From Nitrososphaeraceae archaeon (GTDB lineage: Archaea; Thermoproteota; Nitrososphaeria; Nitrososphaerales; Nitrososphaeraceae), in assembly GCA_035297365.1 (NCBI GenBank), contig DATGZA010000075.1:46249-110248 (forward strand): 64,000 nt of DNA, read 5' to 3'. Positions within the stretch are counted from its first letter, which is position 1, and each line of letters begins with the position of its first letter. Shown here piece after piece: positions 35,966 to 52,949 of this stretch. The notes under the pieces are model-generated. The model ran no database searches and was not told where the DNA came from. It worked only from the letters and a program-made list of their open reading frames with translations. The position numbers were made by a program, and so were the translations under genes.

Positions 35966-36005
35966 AAAGATACTTTAAATAACGAAGAGTTCAGATTTCG
36001 TATGT

Positions 36006-36080
36006 GCGACGGTCGTCCAGTTTGGTCTAGGACATCAGATTGCCAATCTGGTAACCCGGGTTCAAATCCCGGTCGTCGCA
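36006..36080 (+). tRNA. tRNA-Gly(GCC)
   Basis: GCGACGG/TCGTCGC-A acceptor, anticodon loop TT-GCC-AA, TTCAAAT; TTTAAATA promoter box upstream. Confidence 0.96.
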
Positions 36081-36111
36081 TATTTTTAGATCAAATTTAA
36101 TAAGGTACTAT

Positions 36112-36333
36112 TTAATCAAATCCAGTTCCACATGCACATAGACCATTCTCGTCAACACCTCCATCACATATTGGACACACCGCAATGTATTTGGATTCCC
36201 AAACTGATTTTCCAAATAAATGAAAATGCGTGTCGATATCCTTTGGAATTTCAAAATCCTCTAATTTATAAGATATTTCATTATCAGAAGATTTAGACTT
36301 TACATTTTTTTTATGTCTCTTATTTGGATACAA
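36112..36333 (-). CDS. Small protein with C-terminal CPIC...CACG Zn motif
   Basis: Cys pattern; last gene of a four-gene minus-strand string. Confidence 0.65.
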   Translation of the reverse strand: MYPNKRHKKNVKSKSSDNEISYKLEDFEIPKDIDTHFHLFGKSVWESKYIAVCPICDGGVDENGLCACGTGFD

Positions 36334-36338
36334 CTGAT

Positions 36339-36794
36339 TTATTCACTTTTTTTATAGTACGATCTTTTAATATTATTCCTAATAATATTAATGGCATTTT
36401 CTATCTTATCTCTATTTGGAAGCTGAATCATAAACAAATTAGAAGAGTATTTAGTAGAATATTCCTTCGGGATAATGGCTAATAGACCGTTTCGGTACAG
36501 ACTATCGAAAAATTCTAATGATGTATTGGCATGCATCAAAAAATTTTCCTCAATGCCCAAATTAATCATTTCTAATTGTATATCTACAAAAACATAATAA
36601 CCATCATAAAAAATATTTAGCAGAACTTCAACAATATATTTTTTTCCGAAAGATTTTTGGATAATATTTTCATAAGCGTTTTCATTTAAGTAAATGCAAG
36701 GTACTTTATTACCTTCATAATCAATCACCCCAAAACCTTCTTTATGCAAATTTGTCAAGAAATCATTTACATCGTTAAATTTCCGAAATCTCAC
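36339..36794 (-). CDS. Hypothetical protein
   Basis: 151-aa ORF tightly packed between the ATPase and the Zn protein. Confidence 0.65.
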   Translation of the reverse strand: MRFRKFNDVNDFLTNLHKEGFGVIDYEGNKVPCIYLNENAYENIIQKSFGKKYIVEVLLNIFYDGYYVFVDIQLEMINLGIEENFLMHANTSLEFFDSLYRNGLLAIIPKEYSTKYSSNLFMIQLPNRDKIENAINIIRNNIKRSYYKKSE

Positions 36795-36855
36795 AATAAA
36801 AAATTCAAGAGAATCACTTTTATTTCTTTTTCTTTTTGGATAACGTAGGATTAGA

Positions 36856-38475
36856 TTAGTTTAGATTGATTGATTTAGCTAATAAAATAGCTCTCTTAGT
36901 ATCTTCATTTGTACTAATATTAGCTTTTAATTTATAAGCATAATACAACAAGTCGATTATTTTGTTACGATCCAAAGTTATTTTATGTGTTTCAGAAACG
37001 GCTATATTAGAACCAGAGAACACACTGCTTCCATCAGAAGCGAATTCTGCAATATTGTTAAGAGATAAATTTTGTTTAAATAAAAGGGCACCAGAATTAC
37101 CTGAAATAGAAATTGCTGATGTTTCATTCAGCTCATTGCCGAAAATTTCAATATCGTCATGCGAAAAATAATAATTTTCATAGTGAGGATCGATTTGTTT
37201 AATTGATTCTAAAAGAGTTTTAATAGAAGTTATAATTTCCTGCTTTAAATCAACTACAGAGATCATATGATTTTTAATTTTAATGAATTCTGAAATAGAA
37301 ATATTCATTATACTGCCTTTTATCTTCAGACCAGGATAAGTACTCTTTAGAGCTTCATCTATTGAATCTTCAGTAACTGATTGCAGATTTTTATGACGAG
37401 CTATTTCAAAAGAATTGTACATTATATTCAAAATTGAACGAATATTTCTAAAATCAAAATCATCGTATAATATCTTCAATTTAGACAATAAATCTTTTAT
37501 GTCGGCTTGCGATAAACCGGAGTATTGATTATAATACCTTATATATTCAAGAACAATGTCTGAAATTTCTTCAAAGGAATTTGATCCCGCTAAATCAATT
37601 TTATAATTAGCCTTTTCTAGTCTATCAAAAACAGAACTATCCTTCATCCCAATTCCGTTATATGCGAAGGGAGTGGAAATTAACATGAGAATTGTATATG
37701 GGAGGTGTGTGTTTATCAAAGCTTTTACGAAAGATAATGTATCACTAGTTGCGTCGAATTCATCAAACTGGAATATAGAAATCTTGTTTAGTAGTTTTAG
37801 ATTAAGGCGAGACAGTAACGATAACCTATTTATCATATCAAGTAATGTAATAGAGTCATAAGAATCGAATTTATTTTGTATTATTTTCTTGATTATCACT
37901 AAATCCGATGACGAGAATTCGCCTTCGAATAAAGAATCGATTTTATCAATATTGAGATCTGTCTTATTTGCTATAATTTGAAGAACTTTATTTTCCAAAC
38001 CTTTACCAGATAAAGACTCCAAAAAGCCAAGTTTAAAAATTTTTTTTGCAAGTTTATTATTACTTTTGCTTTTATCTAGTATATAAAATAGTATTTCTTT
38101 CCTTAGCATTCCCAGATAATCATTGTCAAAACCATGGATCATTGATTGATAAATACTCGGAATATTTTTAGGATAAATTTGAGATAAATCAAGATAAGAA
38201 AAAATAGCTTTCTCTTTCAGATCCGATATTTTTACGTGGAGAGTTAAATGTGTCTTCCCAGATCCTACATCTTGAACTATCGTAACTATTCGAAACTTAT
38301 TATTATCATTATTGATTCTATCTATATTATAAATATCTTCAAGGCAGGAAATAATAGAATTTTTTGCATCATTATGTCTTTTACCTCCCAAAATCCTAGA
38401 GTCATCTATACTAGGAGTAGGACTGCTAGGAAAAGGATTATGACGTAGACGATATGGATACAATTTTATAAACAC
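36856..38475 (-). CDS. Uncharacterised AAA+/P-loop ATPase
   Basis: N-terminal LRHNPFP, Walker A QDVGSGKTH, Walker B IFQFDEFD, Arg finger VFDRL, sensor-2-like RNIRS. Confidence 0.85.
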   Translation of the reverse strand: MFIKLYPYRLRHNPFPSSPTPSIDDSRILGGKRHNDAKNSIISCLEDIYNIDRINNDNNKFRIVTIVQDVGSGKTHLTLHVKISDLKEKAIFSYLDLSQIYPKNIPSIYQSMIHGFDNDYLGMLRKEILFYILDKSKSNNKLAKKIFKLGFLESLSGKGLENKVLQIIANKTDLNIDKIDSLFEGEFSSSDLVIIKKIIQNKFDSYDSITLLDMINRLSLLSRLNLKLLNKISIFQFDEFDATSDTLSFVKALINTHLPYTILMLISTPFAYNGIGMKDSSVFDRLEKANYKIDLAGSNSFEEISDIVLEYIRYYNQYSGLSQADIKDLLSKLKILYDDFDFRNIRSILNIMYNSFEIARHKNLQSVTEDSIDEALKSTYPGLKIKGSIMNISISEFIKIKNHMISVVDLKQEIITSIKTLLESIKQIDPHYENYYFSHDDIEIFGNELNETSAISISGNSGALLFKQNLSLNNIAEFASDGSSVFSGSNIAVSETHKITLDRNKIIDLLYYAYKLKANISTNEDTKRAILLAKSINLN

Positions 38476-39218
38476 CTTACAAAGCCATGCAATAATCCAC
38501 GAATAATTATTCCCTCTTCCCCGCCAGAAGACAACTCGTAATTATTTTTGAATTGATCTATCAATTCTTTTGTATAATAGTAAAATTGTTTCTCCGTTAG
38601 TTCGTGTTTTAGACAAAGATCATTTCGAACTATAGATAATGCCACCCATCCAATTGAACCAGCATTTTTTGAAATCGATAAATCGAAATCAAGTTTAAAA
38701 GTATTTAAATCAATTGTTTTTTCTGGTTTTGAATCCGACTCCTCATATCGTTGGTTACTGTTCGTTAATAAAGAATCCATTAGTAAAATGAGTCGACCGT
38801 CCAGTTTTTCAACATGTTTATTGACTGAGGAAGACAGTCCATGAAATGAATCTTGTAAATCTTTCAAAAGCTCGTAAATATATTTAAATTTAGCGTCGGA
38901 ATTAATAAGATATTGAAAATAGTTATCTTTATGCCAATAGTAATATGTATTGGCTTTTTTGCCAATAATTACTTCTCCAGTTTTAAGCCATTCTTCAATT
39001 TTTTTATCAAAGTCTGTACCCGGAAATTCTTTTTTTAAGGCAATCCTCTTTACCCCTTCTTCACCTGAAGAAAAAATTTTGTCAAATATTTTTTCCTCTA
39101 AAGACATGGAATACATTTTTAATTTTCTTATAAAAGATACTGGGTGATAATAGATAAAATAATTAGTGAATTTAATTTTACTATCAACTACCTTGGATTT
39201 ATTCTCAAATTGCAACAA
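38466..39218 (-). CDS. wHTH / coiled-coil / wHTH protein overlapping the ATPase; probable start ATG 39116 or 39107
   Basis: N-terminal wHTH-like (LKKEF...GEVIIGKKANTYYY), heptad region, C-terminal GWVALSIVR...YELSSGGEEGIIIRGLLHG. Confidence 0.72.
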   Translation of the reverse strand: MLQFENKSKVVDSKIKFTNYFIYYHPVSFIRKLKMYSMSLEEKIFDKIFSSGEEGVKRIALKKEFPGTDFDKKIEEWLKTGEVIIGKKANTYYYWHKDNYFQYLINSDAKFKYIYELLKDLQDSFHGLSSSVNKHVEKLDGRLILLMDSLLTNSNQRYEESDSKPEKTIDLNTFKLDFDLSISKNAGSIGWVALSIVRNDLCLKHELTEKQFYYYTKELIDQFKNNYELSSGGEEGIIIRGLLHGFVRCL

Positions 39219-39316
39219 AATAGTCTTTGTAAAATTTTACTCTATTTTCCCAATAAAATAATTAACAATTATTAATAATACAGATCAAATTTGAAATAAA
39301 ATCCATTATTTATTAA

Positions 39317-39370
39317 CGGGATGATGAAAACTTTGCTGATCGATGATGAAAGCACTAGGGTATCTGACCG
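39317..39370 (+). ncRNA. Box C/D guide sRNA
   Basis: All four consensus boxes: C ATGATGA 39321-39327, D' CTGA 39336-39339, C' ATGATGA 39343-39349, D CTGA 39364-39367; terminal CGG/CCG stem. Confidence 0.85.
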
Positions 39371-49882: not shown

Positions 49883-51158
49883 TATCGTAATTAAATAATT
49901 TAGCAGCAATTTTAATAATTTCCTGTTCATCGCCTGTATCACTTTGGATATATCTACGTAAATTATTCATAGGGGTAGAAATAATTCCTTCCAATAGCGC
50001 ATGAGAAAATTGTTCAATTATCTTCATTTCTTCGGGGCTCATATTCTTTCCTAGAATGGATAATGCTTTTTTCAACTCTCTTTCCCGGATCTTATCTACA
50101 TTGCGAAAAACAGATATTACAACTGGATCAGCTTTCTTTCTCTTCAACAATATATCAATATTCTTCATTTCATCCTCAATAATATCCTCAGCTGATTGAA
50201 TTTCTTTCCGTCTAAACTGAATATTTCTCTTCACTATATCTCCAATTTCATCCATATTAAATAAATTAATATTTTCGATAGATGAACAAGTTTCCTCAAC
50301 TGTTCTGGGATTTGATAGATCAAAAATCAAGAGTGATTTTGATCTAGAACTTGCTGCTCTCTTGATTCTATCATAAGTTAACAAATAATAAGGAGCTACG
50401 GTGCTGACAAAGATAATATCCATTTCTCCTAATGATCCAAGAGCTTTTTCAAAAAATATCGGATTTCCCCCCATTGATTGGGCAAAAGACTTCGCTCTTT
50501 CAAAAGTTCTACTGGTATTCATAAAAAAGATATTTCGTTTTTTAAGGGTCTTTGCAACCAGCCCTGCCCCTTCACCTGAGCCGATTAACAAAATGTTTTT
50601 ATTGTCTAACGTTCCAAGTTTTTCTTCTGCAAGATTAACTGCCATAGATCCAACAGAGACACTACCTTTATTGATCCCAGTAAGATATCTTACCTTACTT
50701 CCAACTCGTATTGATTTTTCAAAAACAAGAGATAGAACATTTTTTGTAAAGTTATTCGATCTAGAAAATTCATACGATCTTTTGACCTGACCTAGAATCT
50801 GATCTTCTCCTAAAACTAATGAATCTAATCCCGATACTAACTTTAAGAGATGTCTCACTACATCGTCTCCATTTTCAATAACTATCATTTCAGAAAATGT
50901 TTTGACTGATAATCCACAATGCTGTGCCCAGAATTTTATAATATTTTCTGTGTCTATCTTACTATCACATATTCCAAAGATTTCCACCCTATTACAAGTC
51001 TGTAATATTAGACATTCTCTAAGATTAAAATTTTCTAGTAAAAAGGTATGGGCACCTTCGATGTCTTTAAAAGAAAATTTTTCGAGTAAATGAATAGGCG
51101 CTTTTTTATAGGTAACGCGAAAATTTATTATTTCAATGAATTCACTTACTAATGTCAT
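49866..51158 (-). CDS. hemA: Glutamyl-tRNA reductase
   Basis: TCNRVE, SGLDSLVLGEDQILGQV, DLSNPR. Confidence 0.97.
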   Translation of the reverse strand: MTLVSEFIEIINFRVTYKKAPIHLLEKFSFKDIEGAHTFLLENFNLRECLILQTCNRVEIFGICDSKIDTENIIKFWAQHCGLSVKTFSEMIVIENGDDVVRHLLKLVSGLDSLVLGEDQILGQVKRSYEFSRSNNFTKNVLSLVFEKSIRVGSKVRYLTGINKGSVSVGSMAVNLAEEKLGTLDNKNILLIGSGEGAGLVAKTLKKRNIFFMNTSRTFERAKSFAQSMGGNPIFFEKALGSLGEMDIIFVSTVAPYYLLTYDRIKRAASSRSKSLLIFDLSNPRTVEETCSSIENINLFNMDEIGDIVKRNIQFRRKEIQSAEDIIEDEMKNIDILLKRKKADPVVISVFRNVDKIRERELKKALSILGKNMSPEEMKIIEQFSHALLEGIISTPMNNLRRYIQSDTGDEQEIIKIAAKLFNYDNENTN

Positions 51159-51826
51159 TATTTTTCAGACTCGCTCCACTTGTTCAACAATTTGAGAGTA
51201 AGAGTTTTGGCTTCTTCCATCCTATTGTCTTTAATTAATGTTTGAATATGCTCATCTCTGATTAAAGAATACAAGAATTTCTTTCTTTCCGATACAGTGT
51301 TGATAATAGGCCTTGCTTGTATTCTTGCGAATTCCTGTAATTTTGTATTGTCAATATCCGCCTTCTTAATTATTCTCCTTAAAATACGTTCTGCTTTTAT
51401 TCTTAATCTCCTGGCCATAATAGGACTTTTACCGTAGGTTGAAATTGCCACTTGCATAGTACCTTCAATATTTATTACTGAGGCATAGGAAAAGTCGCTA
51501 ACAACAGGATCATCAGCAGCGTATACAAAAGATCTAGACAATCTACCTTTCTCAACGATTTTTCTATTCAGGTCCTTATCATCGGTTGCAGCCAAAACAA
51601 GAAAAAGATCTTTGAAGTTGTCTAAAATATTGGTGTCGGTAATCTTTTGTTTTATTAAATTAATCTTTCCATCGTCATATAAAGTACGAAGATTAGAGTT
51701 AATCTTATCGCCTATGACTGTGATTTTGCAATTTTGACCTAATAGGCCACGTACTTTTCTGTAGCCTTCTACCCCTCCTCCAATAACTAGGACATTTTTT
51801 CCATTGAGGTTCAGGTCAACTATCAA
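51158..51826 (-). CDS. sirC: Precorrin-2 dehydrogenase/sirohydrochlorin ferrochelatase (SirC/Met8p-like)
   Basis: VLVIGGG, AATDD, ADDP...DF, ISTYGKSP. Confidence 0.9.
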   Translation of the reverse strand: MIVDLNLNGKNVLVIGGGVEGYRKVRGLLGQNCKITVIGDKINSNLRTLYDDGKINLIKQKITDTNILDNFKDLFLVLAATDDKDLNRKIVEKGRLSRSFVYAADDPVVSDFSYASVINIEGTMQVAISTYGKSPIMARRLRIKAERILRRIIKKADIDNTKLQEFARIQARPIINTVSERKKFLYSLIRDEHIQTLIKDNRMEEAKTLTLKLLNKWSESEK

Positions 51827-51968
51827 TTACCACACCGTGTTGAAGAAACAATATCTATTACATTATTTAAATTATTTCAACAAAAAAGAAAAGAAAAAAC
51901 TATTAATAATTTTGAAGCCTAAACAATATTATTTGATTATAAAATAATATAGTAATAAATGAGCCTAA

Positions 51969-52949
51969 TTGATAAATAAAAACTCCGCAAATAAAAAATT
52001 AGAACTTGAGGATATTGAAGAAATAGGTCCTGCAACAAAAATGCATTTGATTAACGCAGGAATCGAATCCCTAAGAGACTTGGTTGTCAGAGGACCGCAG
52101 AATATTTCAGAGGTAACTGGAATAAATATCGAAAAGGCAGTGGATTTGTGTAATAAAGCTAGAATGAAGTTAGAGGAGTTTGAGATTATAGATAAATCAT
52201 TTATAACTGCTACCGAGTTATATAAAAAGAGGCTAAATATTGAACGAATATCCACAGGATCGAAAAATCTCGATGAGTTACTAGGGGGCGGAATTGAAAC
52301 TGGAGCTATCACAGAAATATATGGTGAATTTGGTTCTGGAAAAACACAAATTTGTCATACCACAGCAGTTTTGGTACAACAAAAAAAAGAAAACGGGGGT
52401 TTAGAAGGTGGAATCATATACGTAGACACAGAAAATACATTCAGACCTGAAAGGATAGTTTCCATATCAAAATCAAGGAATATCGATCATTCACCTGTCT
52501 TAGAGAATATTATTGTTGCAAAAGCTTTTAACAGTTCTCATCAGGAGCTTATTATTCAAGAAATTGGAAAAATAATAGAAAACAATAACATTAAGTTAGT
52601 AATAATCGATTCTGCTATTTCCCATTTTAGAGCAGAATTTTTAGGAAGAGGTACGCTTTCGGAGAGACAACAAAAATTAAATAAATTAATGCATATCCTT
52701 ATTAGGATTGCAGAGACGTATAACATTGCAATAATAATCACTAATCAAATTCAATCTGCTCCAGATATGATATTCGGGGATCCATATAGACCGACCGGGG
52801 GGAATGTCATGGCACATTCTAGTACTTATAGAATATATTTAAAAAAAGCAGGAAAGAATAGGATAGCAAGGATTGTAGACAGTCCATATCATCCAGAAAT
52901 TGAAGCTCTCTTTTCCCTAAGTGAAGAGGGTATCTCTGACCCAGTTTAA
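51969..52949 (+). CDS. radA: DNA repair and recombination protein RadA
   Basis: N-terminal HhH, GEFGSGKTQ, DTENTFRPER, RGTLSERQQ, GGNVMAH, DSPYHP. Confidence 0.95.
   Translation: MINKNSANKKLELEDIEEIGPATKMHLINAGIESLRDLVVRGPQNISEVTGINIEKAVDLCNKARMKLEEFEIIDKSFITATELYKKRLNIERISTGSKNLDELLGGGIETGAITEIYGEFGSGKTQICHTTAVLVQQKKENGGLEGGIIYVDTENTFRPERIVSISKSRNIDHSPVLENIIVAKAFNSSHQELIIQEIGKIIENNNIKLVIIDSAISHFRAEFLGRGTLSERQQKLNKLMHILIRIAETYNIAIIITNQIQSAPDMIFGDPYRPTGGNVMAHSSTYRIYLKKAGKNRIARIVDSPYHPEIEALFSLSEEGISDPV

Follow-up and report, generated by a model that had tools for sequence, protein, structure and literature searches.

What is the role of a compact gene cluster that encodes an AAA+ ATPase and a winged-helix partner in ammonia-oxidising archaea (AOA)? 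The question is raised by four open reading frames (ORFs), here called A, B, C and D, at positions 36112-39218 of a 64,000-nucleotide stretch of DNA (the window; contig DATGZA010000075.1, positions 46,249 to 110,248, assembly GCA_035297365.1). The source genome, with a GC content of ~31%, is that of a soil ammonia-oxidising member of the Nitrososphaeraceae. A first-pass annotation had described four co-oriented, tightly packed genes forming one functional unit around an adaptor-plus-ATPase pair, and the ORF list indeed places all four on the minus strand in that order, although the starts of A and B required correction. We report that B is an ORC/Cdc6-BrxC-like AAA+ ATPase ending in a restriction-endonuclease-fold tail, that A is its tandem winged-helix partner and that the pair is widespread in Thermoproteota. 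As to function, we tentatively read A-B, with a little less than even confidence, as an old, vertically inherited, ATP-driven, DNA-bound two-gene assembly of Thermoproteota that would act in the chromosome cycle.

The genes of the cluster are genuine, to judge by comparison with other genomes. Among 8000 scored candidates, 1316 are homologues of B at E ≤ 0.001; when 1.84 billion representative proteins were searched with a profile, only 106 matches reached the same threshold, many of them fragments, and every full-length distant relative with a named source belongs to Thermoproteota (Thermofilum, Korarchaeota, Thermoprotei and "Thermoproteota archaeon"). Motif conservation in B was judged on a 14-sequence alignment, from which an AlphaFold (AF2) model with a pLDDT of 76.9 was also built. 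The model consists of an AAA+ core and a helical lid, with further C-terminal sequence beyond residue 385. All motifs quoted by the first-pass annotation (NPF, QDVGSGKT, FDEFD, DRL and RNIR) are present and are invariant or nearly so in the 14 sequences (Table 1). The conserved N-terminal peptide has ten invariant residues (Y6, P7, Y8, N13, P14, P19, T20, P21, G30 and G31); NPF occupies residues 13-15, and the NPFP and GG.R parts are retained in the distant Thermoproteota relatives. The first glycine of Walker A is replaced by glutamine in the B proteins of the AOA clade, and relatives carry GPxGxGKT. The long helical insert that had been noted before Walker B is seen in the model as well, entirely helical and placed between strand 2 (residues 90-96) and the Walker B strand (232-238); it is shorter in the 450-aa forms of B in Sulfolobaceae. 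Initiator-clade AAA+ proteins have a DNA-contacting insert between strand 2 and Walker B. The DRLEKANYK block lies at the end of helix 280-287, ahead of strand 291-294, and the FRNIRS block at the start of a lid helix; we take R285 as the candidate arginine finger and R346 as the candidate sensor-2 arginine. The Walker A, Walker B, arginine-finger and sensor-2 features that characterise the AAA+ initiator clade are thus all found in B in the 14-sequence alignment.

Structure comparison of residues 4-384 points in the same direction. The best matches (VIA-align) are the Orc1/Cdc6 proteins 2qby_B (Z 16.5, root-mean-square deviation (rmsd) 4.5, 258 residues aligned) and 1w5s_A (Z 16.3, 262 aligned), followed by TnsC (Z 15.0, 274 aligned), MuB (Z 14.2, 240 aligned) and the N-terminal ATPase of BrxC, which gives the longest alignments (Z 12.2-12.3, 286-294 aligned); the STAND protein ZAR1 reaches Z 12.0. 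Foldseek with the same model finds 1w5t_A (E 8.2e-5) and BrxC (E 2.4e-4). B belongs, in agreement with the earlier placement near Cdc6, TnsC and BrxC/D, to the AAA+ ATPases of the Orc1/Cdc6-TnsC-BrxC kind, and its nucleotide-site residues are intact; we hold the anatomy and family assignment of A-B with high confidence. Scans of A, B, C, D and two neighbours against Pfam, NCBIfam, PADLOC and PHROGs gave nothing above chance (PADLOC matches of these six proteins, immediate neighbours only, had E 0.013-0.039), and the view that the cluster belongs to no named pathway or defence system has held, a check for an already characterised system having found none. A PDB sequence search with the full-length B profile recovered only the P-loop stretch in RecA concatemers, and no Orc1/Cdc6 profile of Pfam or NCBIfam matched B at E ≤ 0.1.

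The C-terminal domain of B had been noted as an extra domain, but its Mrr-type identity had been missed. A distant relative with the source name "restriction endonuclease" (P0211; here P- and L-numbers denote sampled relatives and loci, and f-numbers families of the order) matches Pfam Mrr_cat with 26.4 bits against a cut-off of 21, and the B relative at locus L053 likewise points to an Mrr-type domain. Among 12 aligned C-terminal domains, three match Mrr_cat (best E 1.2e-6), one Mrr_cat_2 and one NA-iREase1. The domain of the window's own B gives no match to PF04471, residues 441-497 of its model are below pLDDT 50, and a PDB sequence search with the C-terminal profile found nothing; because the model is unreliable at 441-497, the fold assignment rests on homology. 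In the columns of the D...(D/E)xK nuclease motif the window protein reads D-I-E-I-F ... I-S-I-S-G and other AOA read V-A-V-V-I, where relatives have D...E/D-V-K; the motif is intact in P0177, P0179, P0210, P0211 and P0134 and in the Sulfolobaceae loci L049, L050 and L063. As judged from these alignments, the C-terminal domain is of the Mrr-type restriction-endonuclease fold, and its catalytic residues are gone in the AOA clade.

The partner protein A was modelled (AF2) from a 20-sequence alignment spanning AOA, Sulfolobaceae and Caldivirga, with residues numbered from M35. The model (pLDDT 86.8) bears out the plan that had been proposed, a winged helix-turn-helix, a helix and a second winged helix-turn-helix, with a winged helix at residues 6-62, a long helix at 75-119 that is followed by a disordered linker, and a second winged helix at 137-215. 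In structure comparisons the N-terminal winged helix is close to that of Rpc34 (Z 8.4), to Stf76 (Z 8.3) and to MarR/ArsR proteins, and the C-terminal one to Cdt1 (Z 7.5, 2zxx_F), the MCM C-terminal winged helix (Z 7.5) and the Rpa2/RPA32 winged helix (Z 7.4). Both winged helices are kept across lineages, the C-terminal one most strongly. The helical segment between them ranges from almost nil, in proteins of 174-181 aa, to ~200 extra residues, in open frames of 405-632 aa, and this variability suggests that it serves a spacer or architectural role. A match of A to the KAP profile (16.4 bits) falls on the helix and is spurious.

A separate observation concerns mobile DNA. The plasmid pDL10 (NC_005562.1, positions 2350-2640, locus L061) carries a 96-aa ORF that corresponds to a stand-alone C-terminal winged helix of A (hhalign 99%, E 5e-18), which explains the labels "plasmid protein" and "PepK" on some Sulfolobus A proteins. 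The ORF was considered as PlrA/ORF80 and this was rejected, as another small DNA-binding gene is annotated nearer the rep operon and no pRN-family plasmid matched. It is the only plasmid match to A; the other plasmids of the collection held no homologue of it, the same search found none for B, and a scan of viral contigs found no relatives.

To assess which of the four genes belong together, 151 genomes drawn from the order were searched with the B profile, the A profile and protein C (totals include the window's genome). B was found in 57, A in 46 and C in 54 genomes. Family f1 has each of the three genes in 22/23 genomes. In f4, B is found in 8/9, A in 7/9 and C in 9/9, with C on contigs other than B's in the eight genomes that have both. 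Family f9 has B and A in 11/11 and C in 0/11, and f12 has B in 10/10 and both A and C in 0/10. The same five of 23 genomes in f13 carry B and A; C is found in 21/23 there, 16 of them without B. The other 15 families have neither B nor A, and C occurs among them in f77 only (1/6). All 46 A matches end within ~100 nt upstream of the B match, on the same contig and strand (coordinate tables). Because A always lies directly upstream of B and C and D are patterned differently, the A-B pair is the module, as far as gene order and occurrence reveal it. The distribution of A-B is consistent with clades, mostly single-copy and near-universal within whole families, and the window's genome has the pair in one copy.

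The adaptor-plus-ATPase pair of the first-pass annotation is therefore well founded, A and B being co-conserved and adjacent in every A-positive genome. The four-gene unit is not: co-conservation holds for A and B and fails for C, which differs in phyletic pattern, and for D, which was found only in Nitrososphaeraceae loci. Of that interpretation as a whole, the pair, the AAA+ placement and the suggestion of similar pairs in Sulfolobales have stood, and the four-gene unit has fallen.

The Sulfolobales pairs lead outside the ammonia oxidisers. In a phylum-wide draw of 401 genomes, B-like genes (E ≤ 1e-5) were found in 67, among them 15 of the 17 genomes from a Brockarchaeota-type family, 11 of the 15 from Sulfolobaceae and 11 of the 12 from a Caldivirga-type family. 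The gene upstream of B is only weakly A-like in Brockarchaeota. An A-like ORF runs 4 nt into the beginning of the B-like ORF at the Sulfolobaceae loci L049-L052, L062, L063 and L066 (Sulfolobus acidocaldarius, Sulfolobus sp. A20, Acidianus, Sulfurisphaera tokodaii, Metallosphaera and Stygiolobus) and at the Caldivirga locus L059, where B has 273 aa and consists of the AAA+ core only. An A profile built from AOA alone matches the Sulfolobaceae A proteins with E 3e-11 to 8e-10, and in a profile-profile comparison (hhalign) AOA B aligns with seven Sulfolobaceae B proteins along 393 columns, which extend from the N-terminal peptide through the C-terminal domain, at 98.3% probability (E 1.2e-14). 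B-like genes are found in 43 of 47 sampled Sulfolobaceae genomes (40/41 high-quality ones), many of which have two copies. The core type of these has lost the nuclease motif and has housekeeping gene surroundings. In a quick maximum-likelihood tree of B (no bootstrap, several long branches), the AOA clade has an SH-aLRT of 100 and the Sulfolobaceae clade one of 99. From this tree the AOA pair looks like a co-orthologue of the two Sulfolobaceae types, with a mainly vertical descent.

The accessory Sulfolobaceae type retains a D...GD(I/V)K nuclease motif. At L049 (1-4400 and 6521-8436) the accessory pair has as neighbours a CRISPR array of at least 66 repeats and a PIN toxin gene, at L050 (2096-2806 and 5990-7917) a gene matching Cas6_N (cas6), and at L063 (1106-1747 and 2262-4178) an IS607-type resolvase. 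By its motif and surroundings, the accessory paralogue is a candidate accessory defence form of the family. Another B of separate standing is that of f12, exemplified by a 556-aa protein with the motif N-V-K (L014:3681-5351, G035); it groups with Thermofilum (94) and not with the AOA clade in the quick tree, and may represent a separate acquisition or an older lineage.

The first-pass annotation had missed that the pair has a counterpart in S. acidocaldarius with published expression data, as passages of PMC6101591 indicate. Locus L062 encodes a B (AAY80574.1) and an A (AAY80575.1), both named S. acidocaldarius, and the pair adjoins, in convergent orientation, a 1293-bp photolyase gene (Pfam). 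A photolyase gene of this length is Saci_1227 in the part of PMC3139894 that describes it; from this adjacency we infer that Saci_1229 (A) and Saci_1228 (B) are the counterparts of A-B. The relevant passages of PMC6101591 present Saci_1228 as a predicted P-loop ATPase and Saci_1229 as an adjacent GntR-type regulator, state that they are down-regulated 4- and 2-fold after ultraviolet (UV) exposure, and describe the pair as highly induced in mitosis/cytokinesis, with reference to Lundgren and Bernander (2007) and Bernander et al. (2010). A distant likeness of Saci_1228 to the HrpA helicase is also suggested in that account (PMC6101591); it is unsupported here, as Pfam gives only weak AAA_22 and nSTAND3 matches. 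The Saci pair resembles A-B in gene order, in the overlap of the winged-helix gene with the ATPase gene and in the two-domain plans of both proteins. Saci_1228 is homologous to the window's B from end to end and has also lost the nuclease motif, and the C-terminal domain of Saci_1229 is clearly homologous to that of A. Saci_1228 differs in its length of 450 aa, its shorter helical insert, the absence of the NPFP peptide and an identity of ~18%, and Sulfolobaceae, unlike the window's genome, often have a second, nuclease-intact paralogue. The passages of the cell-cycle papers PMC12216602 and PMC9976878 and of the review PMC7617429 that bear on such components do not mention the pair.

An analogy can be drawn to Cran1 (SiRe_0086), which the relevant sections of PMC12796447 describe as an OLD-family ATPase-nuclease of Sulfolobales that is apparently essential, cell-cycle regulated and not antiviral. 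The likeness is one of analogy only: Cran1 comes from a family of defence-type ATPase-nucleases with lineage-wide conservation, cell-cycle regulation and apparently no antiviral function. Cran1 differs in its unrelated OLD fold (an ABC-type ATPase with a Toprim domain), its membrane-protein partner and its having been tested experimentally, according to the same sections (PMC12796447). By analogy, Cran1 serves as a precedent for a defence-type family in cell-cycle work.

Compared with known systems, the core and lid of B are structurally closest to Orc1/Cdc6 and to the eukaryotic ORC/Cdc6 subunits, in which Walker A and B, the candidate arginine finger and sensor 2 are equivalently placed and an insert also lies between strand 2 and Walker B. 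B differs in having an Mrr-type fold where the C-terminal winged helix (Cdc6_C, PF09079) would be, and an insert of ~130 residues instead of a single helix. Within the window's genome PF09079 picks other genes, with the canonical orc1/cdc6 at G000:C47. An idea that the pair lies near an origin was rejected, as it is 330 kb to ~1.1 Mb away from orc1/cdc6 in four complete genomes. BrxC and BrxD (PF10923; BREX and BREX-related systems) share with B an ORC/Cdc6-like AAA+ domain with a large helical insert, and the arrangement of A beside B recalls that of the small helix-turn-helix (HTH) protein BrxA, which accompanies BrxC in the systems described in part of PMC12839542. A-B departs from BREX in having no PglX methyltransferase or PglZ among the immediate neighbours scanned, and from BrxC/BrxD in its clade-wide vertical distribution. 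TnsC and MuB are likewise close structural neighbours of B, and with a DNA-binding partner both are recruited to DNA or assemble on it. At the window locus, in contrast to theirs, there are syntenic chromosomal genes and no transposase or transposon ends.

All in all, the likely role of the pair is in our view a housekeeping one within the chromosome cycle, for instance in post-replicative handling, in segregation or in preparing the next round, and virus defence is less likely. This preference is based on the vertical clade-wide conservation, the single-copy synteny and the dead nuclease, on the lack of matches to defence models and of viral or plasmid copies of B in the collections scanned, and on the report that the Sulfolobus counterpart is induced in M/D phase and repressed by UV. 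In the mechanism that we propose, A would dimerise through its helix and bind DNA through its MarR/ArsR-like N-terminal winged helix, and its C-terminal winged helix, of the protein-docking Cdt1/MCM/RPA32 type, would recruit B. ATP-bound B would then assemble on DNA in the manner of Orc1, TnsC and MuB, with its insert and dead nuclease domain as putative DNA-contacting or DNA-structure-reading surfaces, and ATP hydrolysis would release or reset the assembly. A prediction of the A-B complex returned a score of 0.00 and no verdict, which weighs neither for nor against binding.

Several points count against a chromosome-cycle role. The pair is not found in many ammonia oxidisers (f10, 0/24; f15, 0/15; f7, 0/13; and most of f13) and is therefore not essential to the lineage, and the f12 genomes have B but no detectable A. 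Because the AOA pair is co-orthologous with the two Sulfolobaceae types in the quick tree, function may have diverged. The cell-cycle link is one paper's summary of two earlier papers, as given in passages of PMC6101591, and the data concern a paralogue-rich clade whose B is only ~18% identical to that of the window; a full-text search by locus tag led to this paper, and no functional study of the pair was found in the literature. DNA binding, oligomerisation and contact between A and B are features that we infer. The winged-helix Z-scores of A, at 7-9, are generic for the fold, and the CRISPR array, cas6, PIN toxin gene and IS607-type resolvase that adjoin nuclease-intact paralogues fit an ancestry in conflict systems.

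This last observation makes a domesticated or active restriction-like conflict module, in which A would sense or mark foreign DNA, B would assemble there and the Mrr-type domain or, in lineages with a dead domain, a recruited nuclease would attack, the main rival, because such intact paralogues sit beside CRISPR/cas genes in Sulfolobaceae. An NTPase joined to a restriction-endonuclease fold, with an HTH protein as partner, is a typical build for NTP-dependent conflict systems, and D...(D/E)xK is intact in five P-relatives as well as in the three accessory Sulfolobaceae copies. BrxC is a structural neighbour of B in both comparisons, and relatives P0134, P0177 and P0211 score 17.0-19.1 bits, below the 22.2-bit cut-off, against PF10923 (BrxC_BrxD), which B itself does not match; BrxC_BrxD-bearing clusters among the protein-atlas look-alikes offer a lead only. 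In the window copy, however, the catalytic residues are gone, and the pair is single-copy, syntenic across genera and near-universal within whole families, not patchy. Its neighbours in the window are hypothetical or housekeeping ORFs with no adjoining methyltransferase partner, PADLOC gives no match, and the core Sulfolobus paralogue is reported in the passages on expression in PMC6101591 to be cell-cycle regulated. We therefore think a conflict module unlikely, against the chromosome-cycle role that we tentatively prefer.

Two further proposals seem to us distinctly improbable. One would make A-B an accessory licensing or origin pair, with B an Orc1/Cdc6 derivative and A a Cdt1/WhiP-like partner that serve a secondary origin, MCM loading or re-licensing. 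The structural rank of Orc1/Cdc6 and the eukaryotic ORC/Cdc6 subunits is in keeping with it, as are the match of the C-terminal winged helix of A to Cdt1 and, domain by domain, that of whole A to Cdt1 in the human licensing intermediate (8s0f_8, Z 8.0, rmsd 16.3); part of PMC12216602 moreover reports Sulfolobus replication initiators to be up in M-G1. Yet B is without the C-terminal winged helix of Orc1/Cdc6 and has no match to an Orc1/Cdc6 model, the canonical genes are far away in the four complete genomes, the winged-helix matches are generic, and no origin-like repeats were seen in the 600-nt spacer upstream of A, which has only weak AT-rich inverted repeats. The other proposal, to which we give as little credence, is a transcription-regulator pair with A as an autoregulatory repressor and B as an ATP-driven co-regulator or a STAND/KAP-type signalling NTPase that controls A. 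Source annotations, and the passages of PMC6101591 on Saci_1229, name Sulfolobaceae A proteins as BlaI/MecI/CopY- or GntR-type regulators, and one of these proteins reaches Penicillinase_R (24.8 bits against a cut-off of 22.6). The Nitrososphaera viennensis orthologue of B is labelled "KAP NTPase domain-containing" in UniProt, there are weak nSTAND/NACHT matches among relatives, and the distant B of L053 scores 20.2 bits against PF07693 (KAP P-loop NTPase; cut-off 20 bits), to which the window's B has no match. The fold of B is nearer to DNA-loading AAA+ proteins than to STAND (Orc1 Z 16.5 against ZAR1 Z 12.0), though, a nuclease-fold domain would be odd in a co-regulator, and a coiled coil in A that varies from almost none to ~200 residues suggests a spacer or architectural part.

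A bolder version of the chromosome-cycle role, which we hold to be doubtful, is that A-B is a missing Thermoproteota-wide component in which a Cdt1-like double winged-helix adaptor loads an Orc1/Cdc6-derived ATPase that reads DNA structure with its dead nuclease domain and acts at G2/M. If so, the pair might release sister-chromosome junctions or reset origins at G2/M, and the machine would have come from restriction-like conflict systems, or have been passed to them repeatedly, while conserved from Sulfolobus to soil AOA. How segregation is achieved or tied to division is not known, according to the part of the review PMC7617429 on this subject, and A-B is a concrete candidate for coupling replication, segregation and ESCRT-based division in Thermoproteota. 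The pair is present in the 43 sampled Sulfolobaceae genomes mentioned above and in four AOA families, is reported to be cell-cycle regulated in the genetically tractable S. acidocaldarius and consists of DNA-loading parts. One family in two states, core and nuclease-dead or accessory and nuclease-intact near CRISPR, is also a useful case for the study of part exchange between conflict and housekeeping functions, and more than a thousand proteins labelled hypothetical now have a domain-level description.

Table 1. Features of the A-B-C-D locus, in window coordinates.
Feature	Coordinates	Strand	Remarks
TATA-like TTTTATAA	39128..39135	-	~24-27 nt upstream of ATG 39107
Gene A, tandem winged-helix adaptor	38466..39116	-	216 aa from ATG 39116, 213 aa from ATG 39107
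A, N-terminal winged helix	38931-39101	-	AF2 model
A, long helix	38760-38894	-	AF2 model, 45 residues
A, C-terminal winged helix	38472-38708	-	AF2 model
Gene B, AAA+ ATPase	36856..38475	-	539 aa from GTG 38475; 535 aa from TTG 38463
B, N-terminal peptide YPYxLxxNPFPSSPTPT...ILGGKRH	38374..38460	-	residues 6-34; conserved
B, Walker A QDVGSGKT	38251..38274	-	residues 68-75; K74, T75 invariant
B, helical insert	37786..38187	-	residues 97-230, ~130 residues; model secondary structure
B, Walker B FQFDEFD	37753..37773	-	residues 235-241; D238, E239 invariant
B, DRLEKANYK block	37600..37626	-	DRL 284-286; D284, R285, L286 invariant
B, FRNIRS block	37435..37452	-	residues 342-347; start of lid helix 345-361; R346 invariant
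B, C-terminal domain, Mrr-type fold	36859..37323	-	residues 385-539; assigned by homology to distant relatives
Gene C, conserved, family not assigned	36339..36794	-	151 aa; no Pfam, NCBIfam, PADLOC or PHROG match
Gene D, four-Cys zinc-ribbon microprotein	36112..36333	-	73 aa as listed; conserved core ~25-70
tRNA-Gly(GCC)	36005-36081		convergent with the gene cluster, just downstream of D

The gene starts can be refined by comparison with congeners. The listed ORF of A (39218..38466, minus strand; 250 aa if begun at TTG) is probably too long, and A most likely begins at ATG 39107 or 39116, because the A ORFs of congeners have 213-215 aa and begin with ATG. For B, TTG 38463, which lies 2 nt past the stop of A, is the probable start rather than GTG 38475, because orthologues open with MYPY and a protein-atlas entry starts at residue 5. 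As listed, A and B overlap by 10 nt, B and C are 61 nt apart and C and D 5 nt. By the archaeal promoter spacing rule, the position of TTTTATAA suggests a leaderless A-B transcript. The order A-B-C-D-tRNA-Gly is the same in congeners, and the tRNA-Gly is retained in another genus as well; an integrated element, which an adjoining tRNA gene might suggest, was therefore rejected.

C gave no match above chance in family libraries or protein-atlas clusters. Three families of the order conserve it, and among their members are 16 Nitrosopumilaceae-type genomes without A-B. Some genomes thus have C and no B, whereas two B-bearing families gave no match to C and in a third it lies on other contigs. Among the 23 Nitrososphaeraceae genomes with B and C, C directly follows B in 20, lies upstream on the opposite strand in two and is on a different contig in one. 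A AAATAAAA stretch ~30 nt before the GTG start of C, within the B-C gap, may provide C-D with a promoter of its own. D had been called a zinc-ribbon microprotein, and the four cysteines (C53, C56, C66 and C68; CPIC...CAC at 36133-36177) are indeed present; tblastn matches to D follow C at loci from four genera of Nitrososphaeraceae, and none of the other loci searched gave one. From these occurrences, C and D are lineage-restricted neighbours that probably stand outside the A-B machine.

The spacer upstream of A holds two further elements. An imperfect inverted repeat at 39194-39305, just upstream of the likely A promoter, has 18-nt arms that are 83% complementary and 76 nt apart; it could serve as a binding site or have arisen by chance in DNA that is AT-rich. 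At 39318-39368, on the plus strand, two GATGATGAAA boxes lie 22 nt apart with CTGA after each, and an Rfam sR5 match (29.5 bits, E 5.7e-4) falls below the gathering score of 40; the segment is a probable C/D-box small RNA (sRNA), judging by these motifs. A promoter and terminator scan predicted 27 sites against 20.9 +/- 3.9 expected, with bacterial models that are uninformative for an archaeal host. Six soil metatranscriptome runs contain 26-43% of the stretch's sampled words, from which we draw no claim about expression. Elsewhere in the window, the cumulative GC skew has its minimum near 50-52 kb (50000-52000), where the skew changes sign.

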